DNA from: Candidatus Latescibacterota bacterium
Lineage (GTDB): Bacteria > Latescibacterota > UBA2968
Assembly (NCBI GenBank): GCA_965220765.1
Contig: OZ244847.1
Coordinates: forward strand, 3,200,699 to 3,264,698
Length of the DNA: 64,000 bases
Direction of reading: 5' to 3'
The notes beneath the pieces were generated by a model that saw only the letters and a program-made list of their open reading frames with translations, did no database searches and had not been told where the DNA came from. Below are positions 4,241 through 50,240 of the stretch, in pieces. The translations under genes and the position numbers were made by a program. Numbering within the stretch: position 1 is the stretch's first letter; the number at the start of each line of letters is the position of its first letter.

Positions 4241-5116
4241 TTGAACGCATTTGATTATGAAGCGCCCCAGTCTGTAGATGAAGCTATTTCTCTGCTCAGC
4301 GCGGGAAATGGCAATGTCGGCATTCTGGCGGGCGGCACGGACTTGATCGCGCAGTTGAAGGAGGGGCGCAAGATCGATTTGATGCTCGATCTCAAGCAGA
4401 TTCCCGAAGCAACGGCGTTGAGTTTTGATGAGGACAGCGGTTTGTCTATTGGCGCCGCAACATCTTGCTCCAAAATTTACGGTTACGATGTTGTCCAAAG
4501 CCGTTATCCCGCTCTTGTAGATTGTACTTCGCTCATCGGTTCTATTCAGATTCAAAATCGCGGAACAGTTGGGGGCAATTTCTGCAATGCCTCGCCCGCA
4601 GCGGACACCCCACCTGCTGTCATTGTTCTGGGCAGCACATGTCGTATTGCGGGGCCAAATGGCACGCGTGAAGTAGCCGCAGAGGATTTCTTTACCGGTC
4701 CCGGGCAAAGTGTTCTTCAATCCGGCGAGTTTCTCGTTTCTATTCAGGTGCCAACGCCTGCTGCCAATTCGGGGGCGTTTTTCCTGCGATTCATTCCACG
4801 CAATGAAATGGATATTGCTGTGGCCAATGCTGCTGCATCTGTGGTTTTGGACAGCGAGAAAACGATCATTCAAGAGGCGCGGGTGGCTATTGGTGCCGTC
4901 GCACCCACGCCCTTGCTCGTTGCCGATGCAGGCGCAGCACTCGTGGGAAAATCGGTAGATGATGAAGATGCAATAGCTGCGGCGTGCGCGGCATCGCGCG
5001 CCGCAGCCAGGCCTATTAGCGATATGCGGGGAACTATCGAACAGCGGATACACCTGTCCGGCGTTTTGACGCGCCGCGCCATTCAGGGAGCCATTCAGAG
5101 AGCAAAGGAGTCTTGA
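4241..5116 (+). CDS. FAD-binding subunit (CoxM/XdhB-like) of a xanthine dehydrogenase-family molybdoenzyme
   Basis: FAD-binding domain of the molybdopterin-dehydrogenase family (AGGTDLIAQLKEG). The start is placed at the TTG at 4241 because a strong AGGAGG RBS lies 7 nt upstream. The track's ATG at 4172 is in frame but has no RBS. Confidence 0.75.
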   Translation: MNAFDYEAPQSVDEAISLLSAGNGNVGILAGGTDLIAQLKEGRKIDLMLDLKQIPEATALSFDEDSGLSIGAATSCSKIYGYDVVQSRYPALVDCTSLIGSIQIQNRGTVGGNFCNASPAADTPPAVIVLGSTCRIAGPNGTREVAAEDFFTGPGQSVLQSGEFLVSIQVPTPAANSGAFFLRFIPRNEMDIAVANAAASVVLDSEKTIIQEARVAIGAVAPTPLLVADAGAALVGKSVDDEDAIAAACAASRAAARPISDMRGTIEQRIHLSGVLTRRAIQGAIQRAKES

Positions 5117-5612: not shown

Positions 5613-7907
5613 ATGGCGACAAAAACAGAAGATTATTTGGGGATTAAGGATTACAAAGTTATTGGCACCCGTCCGATCCGACACGATGGCGTCGATAAAG
5701 TCATCGGACGAGCCAAATACGGTGCAGATATCGATATGGCGGGTATGTTGCACGGGGCTGTTGTGCGCAGTCCGCACGCACATGCCAGGATTAAATCGAT
5801 AGATACGAGCAAGGCAGAAGCGCTTGCAGGTGTAAAAGCCGTGATCACGGTTGAAGACCTGCCATTGCAAGAAGACAAAATTGAAGACCTGGGTGAAGGC
5901 GCTGCCAATCTCCAGCATCTACGCGCAAATGTACTGGCCGATGGCAAAGTATTGTACCACGGACATGCAGTGGCTGCGGTTGCGGCAACAGATATTCACA
6001 CGGCGCAAGAAGCCGTCGATTTAATCGATGTCGAATACGAGGTGTTGCAACCCGTTCTAACTGTCCAGGAAGCCATGAAAAAGGACGCGCCTTTACTTCT
6101 GGAAAACCAGACCACTGAGTCGCTCGGCGAAGATACGGGACAAAAGAGCAATGTGTGTACCCATTTTCGCCACGAATTGGGCGACGTGGAGAAGGGATTT
6201 GCAGAGGCGGAACTCGTCATTGAGCGAGAATTTGATACTGCGACGGTTCACCAGGGGTATATTGAGCCGCAAAATGCCACAGCCCTGTGGAGTGCCGATG
6301 ATCAGATCACGGTGTGGTGCAGCACGCAGGGCGCATTTACAGTGCGTGAACAGACCGCACAGATATTAGATGTGTCAGTTTCACAGGTCAAAGTCGTTCC
6401 CATGGAAATCGGCGGTGGATTTGGGGGTAAAATTCGGATTTATCTCGAACCTCTGGCCGCGATTCTGTCGAAAAAGACAGGGCGCCCTGTCAAGATGGTC
6501 ATGAGCCGCACAGAAGTTTTGCAGGCTACTGGACCAACCGCTGGCTCTTTTATCAAGTGCAAAATGGGGGTTGACAAAGCGGGTAAGATTGTCGCCGCAT
6601 ATGCGTATATGGCGTATGAGTCGGGTGGTTTCCCCGGTAGTTGGGCAGCTCCAGGCGCCATGTGCATTTTCGCACCCTACAATATTCCCAATGTGTTGAT
6701 TGACGGGTACGAGGTGCTGGTCAACAAACCGCAGACCATGGCTTATCGGGCACCCGGCGCGACCAATGCCGCTTTTGCTTCAGAAACAATTATCGATGAG
6801 CTTTGCGAGCAATTGGATGTTGATCCTCTCGAGTTTCGGCTCAAAAACTCTGCCAGAGAAGGCACGCGCCGCGCAGACGGTCCGGTTTATCCGCGAATTG
6901 GTAATGAGGAATGTGTCCAAACAGCCCTGTCTTCAGAGCACTACGCGACGCAACTCAATGGCAAAAACCGGGGGCGCGGGATTGCATCGGGTTTCTGGTT
7001 CAACGTGGGTTTGAAGTCGAGTGCTGCTGCCAGCGTAAATTCCGATGGCACGGTCAGTCTGGTCGAGGGTTCTACGGATATTGGCGGAACCCGAACGTCT
7101 ATTGCGATGCAATTGGCCGAAGTACTCGGTATCCGGGCCGAAGATGTCAAGCCACAGGTGGCTGATACGGATTCTATCGGCGATACGGATGTGACTGGGG
7201 GAAGTCGCACGACATTTGCTACGGGGTGGGCGGCCTATCAGTGCGCCCTGGATATCAAGGAGCAGTTGATTGAACGCGCGGCAAAATTGTGGGAGATTTC
7301 GACTGATGATGTGGTTTTTGACGATGGTACATTTTCATCATCTGATTCTTCTAAAACCCTATCGTTCAAAGAATTGGCCGGAATGCTTGACGAAACCGGC
7401 GGTCCCGTTATGGGTAGGGCAACCGTAAATCCGTCCGGCGTGGGCGGTGCTTTTGCGGTAATGATTGTCGATATTGAGGTCGATACCGAAACGGGTAAAG
7501 TGGAGATTTTGCGCGTCTCTGTGATTCAAGATGCTGGCAAGGCTGTTTATCCCAGTTACGTCGAAGGACAAATGCAGGGGGGTATAGCGCAGGGTATTGG
7601 CTGGGCACTCAACGAAGAATACGCCTATAATCGGGATGGACTTTTGACAAATGCGAGTTTACTCGATTATCGGATGCCCACGTGTCTCGATTTGCCCATG
7701 ATTGAAACCCATATCGTCGAAGTGCCAAATCCCGGCCATCCCTATGGTGTGCGAGGGGTGGGGGAGGTACCGATTGTTCCGCCTGCCGCAGCAATTGCAA
7801 ATGCGATTTACGATGCTGTGGGCGTGAGAATGACGAATTTGCCCATGTCGCCAGGCGAAGTTCTCAAAGCGTTGTGGTCCCAAAATGGGGAGAATGAGAC
7901 AGCCTGA
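5613..7907 (+). CDS. Molybdopterin-binding large subunit (CoxL/aldehyde oxidase-xanthine dehydrogenase family)
   Basis: 764 aa covering the a/b hammerhead and molybdopterin-binding domains. The active-site loop reads MAYRAPGATN, not the form-I CODH VAYRCSFR motif. Confidence 0.8.
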   Translation: MATKTEDYLGIKDYKVIGTRPIRHDGVDKVIGRAKYGADIDMAGMLHGAVVRSPHAHARIKSIDTSKAEALAGVKAVITVEDLPLQEDKIEDLGEGAANLQHLRANVLADGKVLYHGHAVAAVAATDIHTAQEAVDLIDVEYEVLQPVLTVQEAMKKDAPLLLENQTTESLGEDTGQKSNVCTHFRHELGDVEKGFAEAELVIEREFDTATVHQGYIEPQNATALWSADDQITVWCSTQGAFTVREQTAQILDVSVSQVKVVPMEIGGGFGGKIRIYLEPLAAILSKKTGRPVKMVMSRTEVLQATGPTAGSFIKCKMGVDKAGKIVAAYAYMAYESGGFPGSWAAPGAMCIFAPYNIPNVLIDGYEVLVNKPQTMAYRAPGATNAAFASETIIDELCEQLDVDPLEFRLKNSAREGTRRADGPVYPRIGNEECVQTALSSEHYATQLNGKNRGRGIASGFWFNVGLKSSAAASVNSDGTVSLVEGSTDIGGTRTSIAMQLAEVLGIRAEDVKPQVADTDSIGDTDVTGGSRTTFATGWAAYQCALDIKEQLIERAAKLWEISTDDVVFDDGTFSSSDSSKTLSFKELAGMLDETGGPVMGRATVNPSGVGGAFAVMIVDIEVDTETGKVEILRVSVIQDAGKAVYPSYVEGQMQGGIAQGIGWALNEEYAYNRDGLLTNASLLDYRMPTCLDLPMIETHIVEVPNPGHPYGVRGVGEVPIVPPAAAIANAIYDAVGVRMTNLPMSPGEVLKALWSQNGENETA

Positions 7908-7933
7908 GATGAATCCAATCCAAAGGGGGTAAC

Positions 7934-8527
7934 ATGAATCGAGTGATTTCAATATTAGCTGCCTGGGGACTGGCAGCCCTGATGGTGCTGTGTGTTCCTC
8001 AGATGGCCAATGCCCTGGGATTGGGGGTCAAAGCGGGTGTGAGTCTGACGCGCGAACAGCAGTTTGATACCTTTTATGGCATGGGGGGGCAATTTGACTC
8101 TCACCGATGGATGCTTGGAGGCAATCTCGATCTGGGATCCATTATATTACCCAAATTGCATCTGCTGCCGGGCATGGATATCGCAGTACAGGAAAATTTG
8201 CGCGTTTATGTCGTCAACCTGGATGTCGTTTACTTTTTTCATCAATCTCCGGTCGGGCGGGCCTATGTGGGGGGTGGTTTTGGAACCCACTTCTTTCGCC
8301 CAAAAGACGCAATAGAGCCAGATGTATTAGTAGTAGAAGCATCTGAAGATATCGTCCTTGAAGGACCGCAACCCGATACCAAAATCAGCGTAAATATACC
8401 ATTGGGGTATCGGCGCAAATTGGGGCCGGGGTTGTCCTGGTTTGGCGAGATGAAACTCATCATTGCCGACGATGAGAAAGATAGCGCATTGCAATTCACA
8501 ATTGGTTTTCACTTTGGTAACGAATAG
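7934..8527 (+). CDS. Hypothetical secreted/outer-membrane beta-barrel-like protein
   Basis: N-terminal signal peptide (ILAAWGLAALMVLCVPQMANA) followed by alternating hydrophobic beta-strand-like segments. No recognisable family. Confidence 0.4.
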   Translation: MNRVISILAAWGLAALMVLCVPQMANALGLGVKAGVSLTREQQFDTFYGMGGQFDSHRWMLGGNLDLGSIILPKLHLLPGMDIAVQENLRVYVVNLDVVYFFHQSPVGRAYVGGGFGTHFFRPKDAIEPDVLVVEASEDIVLEGPQPDTKISVNIPLGYRRKLGPGLSWFGEMKLIIADDEKDSALQFTIGFHFGNE

Positions 8528-8536
8528 GAAGGATTT

Positions 8537-8635
8537 ATGGCGAGTAGTGAACGCAGAAAAGAGCTTCGCCGAAGGCGACAGAGGCGAAAAAAACGCCTTA
8601 AAGCACGTCGTCGAGAAGGTAGAAGTGGGAAGTAA
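8537..8635 (+). CDS. Possible 32-aa extremely basic small protein (MASSERRKELRRRRQRRKKRLKARRREGRSGK)
   Basis: ATG preceded by a GGAAGG RBS, 10 nt after the stop of the upstream gene. Too short to appear in the ORF track. 17 of 32 residues are Arg or Lys. Confidence 0.25.
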   Translation: MASSERRKELRRRRQRRKKRLKARRREGRSGK

Positions 8636-8761
8636 GAACTAATAATAGGCATGGCGATTAAAACGAAATAAATAATAAGAACCCTTGCCATATATGCGAT
8701 TTTTTGTACATTAGTATGGAATAAATCAGACCCGCAGTGTCATTTTTCAGGAGGTTTTTCA

Positions 8762-9127
8762 ATGGCTAATCCCAAAGTCATCGCCTATTTGAAGCCAGTC
8801 TGTGGTTGGAGCGGTGGTGTGCGCGCTGTTCTGGCAAAATATGGGCTGGAGTACGAAGACCGCGATATTATTAACAATCCCAATAACTATCGCGAGATGG
8901 TTATGAAGAGTGGGCAACCCTTACAGCCTTGCGTGCAGGTTGGGGATACGATGCTGGCTGATATCAGCGGTGATGAGTTGGAAGGTTGGTTAGTCGCAAA
9001 TGGGTACCAACCGGCAGGTCCAGACGCAACGGTTCCGACAGATCGTTCCTGTACAGATGAAGAACATGAAGCAATGGCGCGCGCAGCACAGCAACCGACC
9101 ATTGCCAACCCTCACTTTGGTAGATAA
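8762..9127 (+). CDS. Glutaredoxin-like thioredoxin-fold protein (CxxS motif)
   Basis: KVIAYLKPVCGWSGGV... matches a glutaredoxin-type fold and monothiol-like motif. AGGAGG RBS. Confidence 0.55.
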   Translation: MANPKVIAYLKPVCGWSGGVRAVLAKYGLEYEDRDIINNPNNYREMVMKSGQPLQPCVQVGDTMLADISGDELEGWLVANGYQPAGPDATVPTDRSCTDEEHEAMARAAQQPTIANPHFGR

Positions 9128-9154
9128 AAACAAGGTGATGGTTTTTTACAGCGA

Positions 9155-9184
9155 GGCGATCCTCAGGGGTCGCCTTTTTCTTTT
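9155..9184 (+). terminator. Rho-independent terminator after the glutaredoxin-like gene
   Basis: GGCGA-loop-TCGCC hairpin followed by TTTTTCTTTT. Confidence 0.45.
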
Positions 9185-9226
9185 GTGCGAATAGAAGCCA
9201 TTTGCAGGTACTTGTATTTTTAGATT

Positions 9227-9910
9227 GTGAATACTATGCAGACGCGCGTTCTCAAAAAAGAGATTGCAGGATGTACCCTGTGCAAACGTCTGGTTGAATA
9301 CTGCCGCACCTTTGATCTGGCGGAAAACCGCAAAATTGGCGATTGCGATTACTGGGCAAAACCCGTTCCGGGGTTTGGAGATGTCAATGCACAATTGCTC
9401 ATTATTGGTCTGGCTCCCGGCGCACACGGAGCCAATCGCACGGGTAGGCCTTTTACGGGCGATGGTGCTGGCGATGTGCTTTACCGCGCACTCTTCCGGC
9501 ACGGTTTTGCCAACCGGGAAACAGCGATTGATCTCTATGACGGAATGCGTCTGGACAATGTGTATATCACCAATGCCGTAAAGTGTGTTCCGCCTCAAAA
9601 TCGCCCCAATGCTGAAGAAAAGCGTACCTGTCTCGACTGGCTGGCGCAGGAGATGACCGTCTTGTCTCGGGTGAAAATCGTTCTGGCGATGGGCAGAGAT
9701 GCATTTGAAAGTTATATTCGGCTGGAGAGGGCAGCAGGGCGTGTGACGAGGCTGAACGCCTATCGTTTCCAACACGGTGGTGTGTATCAGTTAGACGATA
9801 AAATTCTCGTGGCGACTTACCATTTTAGTCGCTACAATATGAATACGGGCGTGCTGACAGAAGACATGATCGATGTGTTGTTCCAGCACGTGTGCGCGTT
9901 GTTGAAGTGA
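9227..9910 (+). CDS. Uracil-DNA glycosylase, family 4 (Fe-S type)
   Basis: N-terminal Cys motif CTLCKRL, the GLAPG active-site motif (equivalent of GEAPG), and a conserved HFSRYN-like C-terminus. Confidence 0.75.
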   Translation: MNTMQTRVLKKEIAGCTLCKRLVEYCRTFDLAENRKIGDCDYWAKPVPGFGDVNAQLLIIGLAPGAHGANRTGRPFTGDGAGDVLYRALFRHGFANRETAIDLYDGMRLDNVYITNAVKCVPPQNRPNAEEKRTCLDWLAQEMTVLSRVKIVLAMGRDAFESYIRLERAAGRVTRLNAYRFQHGGVYQLDDKILVATYHFSRYNMNTGVLTEDMIDVLFQHVCALLK

Positions 9911-46695: not shown

Positions 46696-46734
46696 AAAAA
46701 GGGTCACGGTTTAAATTACCATGACCCTTTTTTA
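46696..46734 (+). terminator. Rho-independent terminator
   Basis: AAAAAGGGTCA...TGACCCTTTTTT hairpin with a T-run. Confidence 0.6.
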
Positions 46735-46860: not shown

Positions 46861-47232
46861 TCAAGCGGCTGGTAACTCATAAGGCTGAACCAAAATATCC
46901 GCCGAAATTCCAAGACCCTTATGCAACTTGCGAATCATGTTCAGTGACAGTGAACATTTTCGATTCAAAACCTCCGACACACGGGTGTCCGAACCCAGAT
47001 AGGGTTCAAGGTCACGATGAGATAAACCTTGACTCTCCATATGGTGAAGGATTGCCTCAATTGGATCCGGTGGCGGGATAGGGTAGTGCTTCTGTTCATA
47101 AACTTCAACGAGCGTGACCAAAACATCGAGTTTATCACCTTCTGGCGAACCATAAGTTGCTCCCCAAAGCCGTTCAATCTCTCTCAAAGCGGCTTCATGG
47201 TCTGACTCGGTTTTGATGGGTTTAATATCCAT
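46861..47232 (-). CDS. higA: HigA-family antitoxin (HTH)
   Basis: MDIKPIKTESDHEAALREIERLW...LSLNMIRKLHKGLGISADILVQ matches the canonical HigA-2 family. Start at the internal ATG (position 47232). Confidence 0.75.
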   Translation of the reverse strand: MDIKPIKTESDHEAALREIERLWGATYGSPEGDKLDVLVTLVEVYEQKHYPIPPPDPIEAILHHMESQGLSHRDLEPYLGSDTRVSEVLNRKCSLSLNMIRKLHKGLGISADILVQPYELPAA

Positions 47233-47242
47233 AGTTATCACC

Positions 47243-47536
47243 TCAAATCGTCGCGGCGTTGATTTTATTATATATCTGGTGTGTACCAACAAATCGAATA
47301 TAAACGATACCGTATTGATAATCAATTGCCGCGACCAACCGGTAGGCATTACCCTTGATGTTGAATATCACCCGATTGTTTTCGACAAAACTGGCATTTC
47401 GATATGTGGCTTTTACATCGGATGGCGTTTTCCAATCGGCCCGTTTCACATTGGCATACCAGGCTTTAAGCGGCTGTTCGGAATCTGCATGCGTTGCCCA
47501 AAATTCTCTCAAAGCCCTGCGTGAAATAATTCTCAT
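47243..47536 (-). CDS. higB: HigB-family toxin (mRNA interferase, RelE/ParE fold)
   Basis: MRIISRRALREFW...KAWYANVKRADWKTPSDVKATY...YRLVAAIDYQYGIVYIRFVGTHQIYNKI is the classic HigB sequence. It sits upstream of higA, i.e. reverse TA order. Confidence 0.8.
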   Translation of the reverse strand: MRIISRRALREFWATHADSEQPLKAWYANVKRADWKTPSDVKATYRNASFVENNRVIFNIKGNAYRLVAAIDYQYGIVYIRFVGTHQIYNKINAATI

Positions 47537-47543
47537 ATGCTTA

Positions 47544-48851
47544 TTATACCATTTGCCTACAGAAATCGGGAACTTCACCCCAGGTCTCGGTCGCCTCACG
47601 TATCCTTTCTTTCACCTCACGTACGAAGGCACCATCCCTATCGCGTTGGGATGCCCGCGCCGCCGACCATGTGTAGCTAATATCAAGGCCAGGTGACATG
47701 GAGATTCGATCGCGATTTGTCCGGGTCGTCTTTTCTTCAAGTGGCTGCACGTCATCGTGAGAAATCAAGCCTATGCCGCTCAGACGGTCCCAGTTGTGGC
47801 GATAAGAACCGGCATCATCTCGGTAAAGAGAGGTAATCTCCATCTCGTCGGGCTCCCACAACTCAATGTACTCATTTACCTCAAGCGACGTGTCCGCCCG
47901 GTGCAGATGTGTCGCTATGTAAGAGAAATGCAGGTTCGGTTTCAACCGCCAGCCATTGTTCTGCAACGCCAAGAGATCTGCGGCGTTATTGTGGTCATTG
48001 TACCAGAAATTCCTTGCCTGTGCCATAGTATCTCCCGGCAAGATCTGAAGCGCAATCTGCCATGATCCTGCATCATCTTGTTCTGCATAGAGCCAGATTT
48101 GCTTGAAAGATGGAAAGTTTACAGCGATGATGGGGGAGGTACGATGCCACGCTGGGGTTGGGTCAATCTCCCGTAGAATCGCTTCGCATCGCCTATTCAG
48201 GAGGTACAAATCGTCCCTACACACCGCGAAGTGATCGAATGGATTGAGCTTTCGATAGTTTTTGGGATAGGCTATGACATAATCAATGAAGTCTCGGATG
48301 ATCACCTTCTCTGCGGGACTGACCAACTCTCTCAGTTCAATGTCCGTAAGGGTACTGATGATATCTCGCCAGGCCAGAATCACTGCCTGTGGATCCACTG
48401 TGATCTGGTCCCCCAAACTCGCCGCGCTTGGCATCAACTGCCACGCTTCGACCTCAGCACCGAGCTTGCACTCGACGGTGAGGGTTAAACTCTCCTGCTG
48501 ATGCCGCCGACCCTCTGGTGCAACAAAAGTCACTACGCCATCGTATATCGCTTTTCTGTCATCCGGCCGGACACCGACATCGACATTCATATTCTCAGCG
48601 GTGATCCCAATGGCTACAAGGCGTCCTTCCTGTGCGACCAGATTTCCGGTCTGCGTTTGAACGACGCACTCCCGCTCTCTTAAGGCCGTCAATGCAGGTA
48701 TCGGTTGCTCCTGCTTGTCCCGGACGAGATCCAGAAATGCCGCACGAATGATTGGCGAGATGCGTATCAGGTTCATCAAAGCCCAGGTAAGGCGGTTTTC
48801 CTCACCTGGCGGATAGGAAAGGCCACCACCAAAAACGTTTAGCTTGTCCAT
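47544..48851 (-). CDS. Hypothetical 435-aa protein, first gene of an operon with higB-higA
   Basis: Long ORF with no recognisable motifs. Its stop is 7 nt before the higB start on the same strand. AT-rich upstream region. Confidence 0.5.
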   Translation of the reverse strand: MDKLNVFGGGLSYPPGEENRLTWALMNLIRISPIIRAAFLDLVRDKQEQPIPALTALRERECVVQTQTGNLVAQEGRLVAIGITAENMNVDVGVRPDDRKAIYDGVVTFVAPEGRRHQQESLTLTVECKLGAEVEAWQLMPSAASLGDQITVDPQAVILAWRDIISTLTDIELRELVSPAEKVIIRDFIDYVIAYPKNYRKLNPFDHFAVCRDDLYLLNRRCEAILREIDPTPAWHRTSPIIAVNFPSFKQIWLYAEQDDAGSWQIALQILPGDTMAQARNFWYNDHNNAADLLALQNNGWRLKPNLHFSYIATHLHRADTSLEVNEYIELWEPDEMEITSLYRDDAGSYRHNWDRLSGIGLISHDDVQPLEEKTTRTNRDRISMSPGLDISYTWSAARASQRDRDGAFVREVKERIREATETWGEVPDFCRQMV

Positions 48852-49244
48852 TTTGTCCTCCAGATTTGGCGTACCCCTTTAGGCCAATTTTTTTTTCTTC
48901 AAGTGTAAAAATAGCCTATTTGTCATGACCAGTCAACAGGCAGGCTGGGACAGGTCTCCATCTGCATCCAGCTATAGATGCTTAACCTTTGTTTCGCCCC
49001 CTGCGTCTTATGTAGTAAAGGGTCAAGAAAAAGGGAACGAAACCGACGACCAGAATGCGCCAGAGGATTTTTGGATCGGAGGATAAATAGGAAAAGCCCG
49101 GCGCGATTTTTCGGCGGGCTTGAAAATCGGCAAATTGTGGGCCATACGAGTAATAGCAAGCGCAATATCTGAATTTGGGATTGGAATAGATGAACACAAG
49201 AGGTATATTGGCACAAATTTATCAATCGCTAACTACTGAAATCT

Positions 49245-50204
49245 ATGGCTAAACAAATAAGAAAAAAAGGCTTTTGTGCCTACTATCTGGGCGGTTTGTT
49301 TGTCAGGATGAGCGATAACAATCTCTTTTTGCTCTGTGCTGGGTTGGCTTTTGCTACTCTTTTGTGCCTTGTGCCTCTGGTCTTTCTGATCTTCTTCGCG
49401 CTTGAGGCCATCCTGGACGTGAGAGCGATAGCTCATTTGGTCAACCAAACGGTAGATATGCTCATCCCATATCCAGAAGAGGCCGAGTATCTGAAGGAGG
49501 TTTTATCCGCGCGCGTCTCAGGTGTCCTGACCTTCAAAAAAGCTTATGGGGCCTCGGGCCTGTTGATTTTGATAGTGAGTGCCAGCAGTCTGTTCAGCAG
49601 CATGAGAACCCTGCTCAATGCGGTCTTCAAGATCGAGCATAATTTTGGGCCGAAAGAGGGAGATACAGGGCCGGTCACGGTGGGACAGTTAAAAAATATG
49701 GGTAATCCAGGACGCTGGATAAAATTCTTGCACGGAGTTTTGTCAATAGCAGTGGGCAAATTGAAAGATCTCACTATGGTACTTCTGGTAATATATATTT
49801 TTCTTCTATTAGTCCTCGCGTTGCCCATCCTATCTACCGTCATCGACACTGCTCCAGCTCTACTGCACACATATATCACCTACTTCTACGGTCTTACCTC
49901 CCTCGTCCTGATTTTTGCTGTCTTTCTGGGGCTATACTGGCTGCTCCCATACCAGAAAATCCAGATAAAGGTACTGGTTACAGGTGCTTTCTGGGCCGCT
50001 TTGCTGTGGAAATTCACCGAATGGGGCTTTGGCTATTACTTGAGTCACTTCGGTTCTATATCGTATCTGTACGGAGCTTATGTTCTGTTAGTGGTCGTAG
50101 CTTTGTGGATATATTTTTCGGCGATTATTTTTATTGCAGGTGCTCAGATCGCCCAACTATGCCGAGAAAGGCCATCTGCTGATCTTCAAAGTTCTTTGTT
50201 TTAA
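49245..50204 (+). CDS. YihY/BrkB family inner membrane protein
   Basis: 319 aa with six predicted TM helices and YihY-type conserved motifs (FFALEAIL, YGAYVLLVVVALWIYFSA). Confidence 0.75.
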   Translation: MAKQIRKKGFCAYYLGGLFVRMSDNNLFLLCAGLAFATLLCLVPLVFLIFFALEAILDVRAIAHLVNQTVDMLIPYPEEAEYLKEVLSARVSGVLTFKKAYGASGLLILIVSASSLFSSMRTLLNAVFKIEHNFGPKEGDTGPVTVGQLKNMGNPGRWIKFLHGVLSIAVGKLKDLTMVLLVIYIFLLLVLALPILSTVIDTAPALLHTYITYFYGLTSLVLIFAVFLGLYWLLPYQKIQIKVLVTGAFWAALLWKFTEWGFGYYLSHFGSISYLYGAYVLLVVVALWIYFSAIIFIAGAQIAQLCRERPSADLQSSLF

Positions 50205-50210
50205 AATAAA

Positions 50211-50240
50211 GAAGCCGAGTTTTTTGAAAAACTCGGCTTC
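50211..50240. terminator. Perfect palindromic bidirectional terminator (GAAGCCGAGTTTTT tga AAAAACTCGGCTTC)
   Basis: 14-bp perfect inverted repeat between convergent yihY (+) and the TonB-dependent receptor (-). Confidence 0.65.

Follow-up and report, generated by a model that had tools for sequence, protein, structure and literature searches.

ORF435, a probable PD-(D/E)xK nuclease of a large unannotated family, and an ordinary HigBA pair: two apparently independent units at a variable chromosomal locus of a Latescibacterota genome

Here we analyse a three-gene locus in a 64,000-nucleotide (nt) stretch of the genome of Candidatus Latescibacterota bacterium (assembly GCA_965220765.1, contig OZ244847.1, positions 3,200,699 to 3,264,698 of the forward strand; hereafter the window), in which the open reading frame (ORF) for an uncharacterised protein of 435 amino acids (aa), here called ORF435, is followed by the genes higB and higA of a toxin-antitoxin (TA) pair. 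In the best explanation, which we regard as fairly probable, the locus holds two independent units, an ordinary HigBA pair and a protein that is probably a PD-(D/E)xK DNA nuclease and likely serves in defence. The locus would be a small variable islet between an operon of ABC transporter and DUF4340 genes and the gene for a BrkB protein. One accessory unit would be the HigB/HigA pair, expressed from its own extended -10 promoter as a nearly leaderless mRNA; the other would be a single-gene cassette, a promoter with ORF435, whose product would act alone as a DNA-cleaving defence nuclease, restriction-like or abortive. The spacing of only 7 nt between ORF435 and higB would be a recent accident, caused by a deletion of about 86 nt. 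Coordinates are collected in Table 1, and homologous loci in other genomes are referred to as L001 to L018.

A PD-(D/E)xK metal-dependent nuclease activity of the N-terminal domain of ORF435 is highly probable, to judge from residue conservation and structural models. In an alignment of 310 near-full-length members of its family (median identity to the query 31%), D104, E127, and K129 are the sole residues invariant in all members; E18 is conserved in 301 of them, most of the others being gapped at this position, Q67 in 306, Q138 in 297, and W161 and C211 in 309 each. Residues 1-178 thus carry the residue pattern of PD-(D/E)xK nucleases, D...(D/E)xK plus a glutamate in the first helix, and the original prediction was wrong in finding no recognisable motif in this protein, where the signature E18...D104...E127-x-K129 is present. 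In the AlphaFold2 models (predicted local distance difference test, pLDDT, of 86 for the full protein; pLDDT of 90 and predicted template modelling score of 0.87 for residues 1-178 modelled alone), E18 opens a helix (residues 18-31), D104 opens a strand (103-110), and E127-x-K129 closes another strand (122-128), so that the modelled positions of these residues fit the canonical alpha-beta-beta-beta core of the restriction-endonuclease-like fold. The same core fold is the best structural match of the N-terminal model. The fold search proposed for the 435-aa protein thus points to a probable nuclease fold in its N-terminal part; no sequence match was found in Pfam, NCBIfam, PADLOC, or PDB, and the full-length model compared with PDB by Foldseek gave nothing at E<0.2. 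In its fold, the C-terminal half recalls YbjN, DUF1054, and the chaperones of type III secretion; a role in sensing, regulation, or oligomerisation is probable if other two-domain defence nucleases are taken as a guide.

ORF435 belongs to a large family that has so far carried no annotation. A word-indexed search yielded 98 homologues (31-80% identity), each about 430 aa long and named "hypothetical". An exhaustive profile search extended the family to 1,028 cluster representatives (clusters at 50% identity) at E<=1e-3, nearly all of full length; 322 of these reach E<=1e-30. The names on the family members include Latescibacterota, Gemmatimonadota, Acidobacteria, Gammaproteobacteria, Parageobacillus, Bacillus, Kiritimatiellaeota, and Bacteroidetes. 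Pairwise ratios of nonsynonymous to synonymous divergence (dN/dS) are 0.10-0.52, and hence ORF435 is under purifying selection; on these coding statistics it is a genuine gene, although its constraint is weaker than that of its neighbours (0.3-0.5 versus 0.04-0.27). By sequence, ORF435 retrieved nothing meaningful from Pfam, NCBIfam, PADLOC, PHROGs, or PDB, nor did the family profile from the PDB sequences, and 52 diverse relatives had no consistent match in Pfam, NCBIfam, or PADLOC. No relatives were found in scans of metagenome contigs of the Joint Genome Institute and of viral contigs, and no description of the family was found in a literature search. One of the family alignments (A2) was too divergent to serve for pattern scans. 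The analysis thus provides a name and an activity open to testing for these roughly 1,000 clusters, which Pfam, NCBIfam, PADLOC, and PDB do not cover.

The comparison of corresponding chromosomal sites makes the independence of ORF435 from higBA quite probable. L005 and L010 occupy the same site as the window (BrkB ... DUF4340/ABC_transp_aux) and carry all three genes. At this site L018 retains higBA and lacks exactly 1410 bp, consisting of ORF435 and its 133-nt upstream region, in flanks that are 96-99% identical to those of L010. The missing segment includes the putative promoter of ORF435, a site that is conserved in L010 at 4911-4939. In L017, the closest relative of the window by its flanks (95.5% identity), ORF435 is a pseudogene, with a stop codon in place of W161 and, near residue 285, a frameshift, and stands beside an intact higBA. 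More generally, homology between loci often ends at the edges of the ORF435 gene. Both L018 and L017 speak against the three-component stress or defence module proposed in the original prediction; in such a module, as in tripartite TA-derived systems of the PD-lambda-2 kind, ORF435 would serve as effector or accessory factor and HigBA as sensor or regulator.

In the alignment of L010 (4868-6277) with L018 (~4595-4600), the edges of the indel are sharp, one falling at the stop codon of ORF435 and the other at that of the ABC_transp_aux gene upstream; they bear a short GTAAG/TGTA microhomology and no terminal repeats. From these junctions, the presence or absence of ORF435 looks like illegitimate recombination rather than transposition. 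Taken together, the same-site comparisons show neatly, on a small scale, how TA pairs and cassettes of the defence type are gained, lost, fused, and inactivated independently at one hotspot.

The close spacing of ORF435 and higB in the window has a local origin. In L010, ORF435 and higB are separated by a spacer of 115 nt, which contains a 10-bp hairpin with a T-run and, after it, the promoter ATGACG-16-TGgTATAAT; this higBA promoter scores 10/12, has an extended -10 element, and ends 6 nt before the higB ATG. Alignment of the junction in the window with those of the relatives reveals that about 86 nt of this spacer have been deleted. The deletion took the terminator and the -35 box and left TGGTATAAT; the stop codon of ORF435 (47546-47544) now lies inside the -10 box, and the residues QMV have been added to the protein. 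It is recent, because L017 still has the spacer. Since the window has no terminator left between the three genes, transcription could plausibly run on from ORF435 into higBA, but only in this genome. Co-transcription of ORF435 and higB would be neither ancestral nor conserved, to judge from predicted promoters and terminators, and how closely genes are spaced in a single genome says little about whether they form an operon. The operon originally predicted is thus not upheld, as ORF435 and higBA have separate promoter-like sites, with a terminator between them in L010; the same arrangement in L010, and the restriction of the short spacing to the window, also argue against a three-component module.

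The two units differ in their divergence as well. For the flanking housekeeping genes, synonymous divergence (dS) is 0.30-0.57 (0.73 in one 59-codon fragment of BrkB) and dN/dS is 0.04-0.27, and for ORF435 of the window compared with L001, L005, and L010 the respective values are 0.37-0.39 and 0.30-0.52, whereas higB and higA have dS of 0.05-0.11 and dN/dS of 0.12-0.37. The synonymous divergence of higBA is thus 4-8 times below that of ORF435 and of the flanking genes, a difference that speaks against a single module. Furthermore, higBA of L018 is 98.9% identical to that of the window in flanks of 90% identity, and one HigB sequence is found on 16 contigs of metagenome-assembled genomes labelled Latescibacterota and Gemmatimonadota. 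Therefore, it seems that higBA was exchanged not long ago and separately from ORF435, and the sequence comparison points to a recent replacement of the pair by horizontal transfer or to its gene conversion.

TA pairs can stabilise genomic islands, and in the other alternative of the original prediction ORF435 is a cargo stabilised by the TA pair; higBA would then be an addiction module that keeps ORF435 in the chromosome, with no biochemical interplay between the two; the adjacency has been kept over dS of about 0.38 in one lineage, and the trio travelled together to a second site. We consider this unlikely, as ORF435 was cleanly lost (L018) or inactivated (L017) with higBA kept, so that no effective protection of the cargo is seen, as the low dS of higBA implies that the pair was apparently replaced more recently than ORF435, and as most of the ORF435 family has no TA neighbour.

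The HigBA pair itself is, on its sequence matches, a canonical type II toxin-antitoxin pair and an ordinary representative of the type exemplified by YgjN/YgjM of E. coli K-12. HigB matches the Pfam family HigB_toxin (PF09907) at 9.8e-33, above the cut-off, the E. coli HigB structures 5IFG and 5YCL at E of about 7e-6 over its full length (residues 1-93), and the PADLOC model PD-Lambda-2_A at 4.2e-41, also over its full length. In HigA, helix-turn-helix (HTH) domain HTH_3 is detected at residues 66-114 with E of 0.009, under the Pfam cut-off, together with PHROG 1373 transcriptional regulator (2e-26) and PADLOC PD-Lambda-2_B (2.6e-44), the latter only at positions 1-120 of the 402 positions of the profile; no match to Peptidase_M78 was found in Pfam, and no relative of HigA was detected in PDB by sequence. 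Near-identical proteins are called HigB and HigA in public sources, and the gene of the RelE/HigB-fold toxin lies upstream of, and 10 nt from, the gene of the small HTH antitoxin. The toxin gene normally precedes the antitoxin gene in the HigBA family, and the "reverse order" ascribed to this pair is thus the usual one. In the window (47534-47551, minus strand) and in L010 (6362-6398), a perfect extended -10 box (TGgTATAAT) ends 6 nt before the higB start codon, for which no Shine-Dalgarno sequence is visible. Because the box is so close to the start, the higBA mRNA is predicted to be leaderless or nearly so. In L005, an IS66-family transposase (7678-9279) is inserted between higB and higA; it alters the C-terminus of HigB (95 aa) and parts the antitoxin gene from the higBA promoter.

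The genomic contexts of ORF435 homologues, read at about 13 distinct loci, bear on the function of the family. In the Latescibacterota locus L002 (73% identity to ORF435), the neighbours are a type I HsdM, an SLFN/AlbA_2 protein, and two transposases; in the gammaproteobacterial L003 (62%), a HigB-like gene, an HTH-M78 peptidase of the PD-Lambda-2_B type (4.5e-41), a DarT-DarG fusion, and a methyltransferase; in L004 from Acidobacteria (49%), a PARIS AriAB fusion (1.8e-137); in L006 (46%), BREX PglZ-BrxL; in L007/L008 (70%), a DUF4062-TPR protein, an Eco57I-type methyltransferase, and a Gp49/HTH pair 3 kb away; and in L015 (25%), AAA plus PDDEXK_4, WYL, ISL3, and Cas3-Cas5d. The contexts of L009, L011/L012, L013, L014, and L016 (23-64%) are less informative, with IS200, integrase fragments, and housekeeping genes. 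The homologues in L002, L004, L006-L009, and L011-L016 have no adjacent higBA, and no neighbour is conserved family-wide among these contexts. Therefore, the ORF435 family behaves as a stand-alone accessory gene, often inside defence islands, and the defence or mobile-islet flavour originally attributed to the locus is supported by its homologues. As the distribution of the family is sporadic and many of its neighbours are defence genes, we infer a defence function for ORF435, with a confidence only somewhat above even.

Two candidate partners were considered and rejected. ORF435 could be the restriction partner of a methyltransferase, but an adjacent methyltransferase occurs in just two or three of the contexts, and none is present in the window. 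In L009 (4227-4967) and L011 (3988-4740), whose contexts are unrelated, the gene that immediately precedes the ORF435 homologue encodes a 246-250-aa protein; this protein is unrelated to the proteins encoded upstream in L006 and absent from the window, and was thus dismissed as a family-wide partner. Its two copies are 75% identical to each other and share a D...ExK-like motif (DLTVYD...NVEFKAGG), with no Pfam or PADLOC match. On the basis of this motif, it may be a second nuclease that travels with some members of the ORF435 family. In L003, a 386-aa fusion of DarT (residues 1-190) and a DarG-like macrodomain (residues 202-369) is encoded at 7366-8526, directly downstream of the ORF435 homologue.

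It could also be that ORF435 is no immune gene at all and encodes a selfish or decaying accessory nuclease, such as a homing-like enzyme or a remnant of a mobile element, or a nuclease of repair or recombination. Its presence or absence at gene edges, the pseudogene in the closest relative, the relaxed constraint, the lack of a methyltransferase partner in the window, and the location of some homologues near integrases and transposases or in housekeeping contexts agree with such an origin. However, the cassette is bordered by neither terminal repeats nor target duplications, phage and plasmid collections contain no match, the recurrent neighbours are bona fide defence systems, and the strict conservation of the triad across about 1,000 clusters, together with the full-length architecture, points to a maintained cellular function. 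We therefore hold this alternative to be rather unlikely.

Several observations weigh against two independent units and against a defence nuclease. The trio is conserved in the same order in at least four genomes, those of the window, L001 (79% identity to ORF435), L005 (77%), and L010 (69%). In L001, it lies elsewhere in the chromosome, and the only stretch homologous to the other loci begins 10 nt ahead of the ORF435 ATG and stops close to the 3' end of higA; therefore, the trio moved once as a unit. The gammaproteobacterial L003 has a second, independent adjacency, where the pair of HigB-like and HTH-peptidase genes is located 31 nt upstream of the ORF435 homologue. Thus, some functional link of ORF435 with HigB/HTH modules may exist. 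As for defence, ORF435 has no match in PADLOC-DB 2.0 at E<=1, and its 52 relatives have no consistent one; tblastn gave no match in 50,697 phage records (query ORF435) or in 72,556 plasmid records (queries ORF435 and a consensus-like relative); the context sample is small; and L016, and partly L014, lie in plain housekeeping surroundings.

The conserved order, the single move in L001, the arrangement in L003, the 7- and 10-nt gaps without an intervening terminator in the window, and the matches of HigB and HigA to PD-Lambda-2_A and PD-Lambda-2_B are also what a three-component module would lead one to expect. The expected conservation of the gene order elsewhere is thus observed in L001, L005, and L010, but most homologous loci are without higBA, ORF435 matches no PD-Lambda-2_C model, and HigA has no peptidase domain. 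Considered with the loss of ORF435 in L018, its decay in L017, the signals in the L010 spacer, and the unequal divergence, this makes a three-component module distinctly unlikely. In a bolder scenario, ORF435 would be the founder of a new widespread group of single-protein anti-phage nucleases in which a PD-(D/E)xK domain is joined to a chaperone/YbjN-like sensor. Two or more times, in genomes of the Latescibacterota type and in a gammaproteobacterium, such nucleases would have recruited HigB/HigA(-peptidase) modules of the PD-lambda-2 type to regulate or trigger them, and ORF435 would then be another form of the third component in TA-derived defence; we regard this scenario as very improbable. 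If ORF435 is indeed a defence nuclease, its family would be one more single-gene defence system, and its nuclease-plus-sensor architecture would be new for mechanistic study.

Table 1. Features of the ORF435-higBA locus in window coordinates
Feature	Position	Strand	Remark
ORF435: 435 aa, unannotated family	47544..48851	-	stop codon included; good ribosome-binding site GGAGGACAAAATG
higB: RelE-fold mRNA interferase toxin, 97 aa, MRIISRRALREFW...	47243..47536	-	PF09907
higA: HTH antitoxin/repressor, 123 aa, without peptidase domain	46861..47232	-	HTH_3, PHROG 1373, PADLOC
Intrinsic terminator hairpin 3' of higA, 15-bp stem	46696..46732	-	counterpart conserved in L010 (7199-7237)
Promoter-like site for ORF435, TTGACT-17-TATTTT	48908..48936	-	consensus scan; ~57 nt upstream of ATG
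Extended -10 element TGGTATAAT of higBA promoter	47543..47551	-	junction alignment
N-terminal PD-(D/E)xK-type nuclease domain (predicted), ORF435 residues 1-178 (E18, Q67, D104, E127, K129)	48318..48851	-	
Helical linker and C-terminal alpha/beta region, ORF435 residues 179-435	47547..48317	-	

In the window, the three genes lie head to tail on the minus strand. The original prediction of the 435-aa ORF ending 7 nt before higB is borne out, and the gap between higB and higA, given as 11 nt, measures 10 nt. The hairpin after higA is a strong terminator, as described, and is probably bidirectional and shared with the convergent DUF4340 gene. The second hairpin thought to bound the trio (50211-50240) is genuine, with a free energy of -21.6 kcal/mol and z of -5.0, but it is located between the convergent genes for BrkB (49245-50204, plus strand) and a TonB-dependent receptor and does not delimit the trio, because the opposite-strand BrkB gene intervenes. 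Similarly, the locally AT-richer stretch that had been noted is limited to higBA (GC content 0.43-0.45), whereas the GC content of ORF435 (0.51-0.54) is similar to that of the flanks. The flanking genes are housekeeping ones, encoding an S49 peptidase, an amidohydrolase, an ABC transporter with ABC_transp_aux and DUF4340 proteins, BrkB, and two TonB receptors; transposon-like repeats, tRNA, and Rfam elements were looked for at the islet, and none was found.

Two further observations concern the sequence around these genes. The 390-nt "intergenic" stretch 48852-49244 contains, at 48982-49146 on the minus strand, the relic of a second GldG-like ABC_transp_aux gene, namely its 3' end encoding the C-terminal membrane segment. 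L005, L010, and L018 have a complete extra ABC operon between BrkB and the position of ORF435, composed of ABC_tran, ABC2_membrane, and an ABC_transp_aux protein of ~1,012-1,027 aa, and therefore the window has lost about 4.6 kb there. A long antisense ORF (113-139 aa) runs across higB and the 3' end of ORF435 in the window (47355-47696, plus strand), L001 (7138-7557, minus strand), and L005 (7153-7572, minus strand); it is probably not a gene, and its conservation in three genomes probably just reflects how very strongly higB is conserved.

Compared with known systems, the TA pair is closest to E. coli K-12 HigB/HigA (YgjN/YgjM), with which it has in common a RelE-fold toxin of about 100 aa encoded first and a small HTH antitoxin encoded a few nt later. 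The present HigA differs in having no PDB relative by sequence and an HTH_3 match below the Pfam cut-off, and the higBA promoter is located 6 nt from the start codon. In PD-lambda-2, component B consists of an HTH and a C-terminal peptidase and is the toxic part, and component C is related to the P4 antitoxin and required for defence (Vassallo et al. 2022, PMC9519451). Our locus resembles this system in its match to PD-Lambda-2_A, its partial match to PD-Lambda-2_B, and the adjacent third gene, and in L003 the likeness extends to a true HTH-M78 peptidase of the B type preceding the ORF435 homologue. However, of the three components only A is recognised here; the ImmA/IrrE M78 peptidase of B and component C are missing, neither ORF435 nor the 52 family members matched the PD-Lambda-2 models, and ORF435 lies upstream rather than downstream and is dispensable for keeping higBA. 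An assignment of the locus to PD-lambda-2 was thus rejected. In the same manner, the TAC system (HigB1-HigA1-SecB-like) resembles the locus in combining HigBA with an adjacent third gene, whose product here has a partly chaperone-like alpha/beta fold, but ORF435 is located upstream of higB, has a putative nuclease domain and no match to SecB or any other Pfam or PADLOC family, and is not co-inherited with higBA, and HigA is short, at only 123 aa; TAC was therefore rejected as well.

Finally, ORF435 can be compared with PD-(D/E)xK nucleases known from defence (Mrr/AF1548-like type IV enzymes, NucS, Card1/Can2, Cap4, Shedu SduA, and Hna). It differs from them in having no sequence-level relationship and no conserved signalling or partner genes nearby, in the N-terminal position of the nuclease, and in the domain attached to it, which is not CARF, SAVED, a helicase, or DUF4263 but chaperone/YbjN/DUF1054-like. 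It shares with them the E...D...ExK motif, the fusion of the nuclease to a non-catalytic domain, and the occurrence in defence islands, and the restriction-endonuclease core fold is the best match of its N-terminal model. By this analogy, the closest functional parallels of ORF435 would be the PD-(D/E)xK nucleases that defence islands encode either alone or fused to a sensor.

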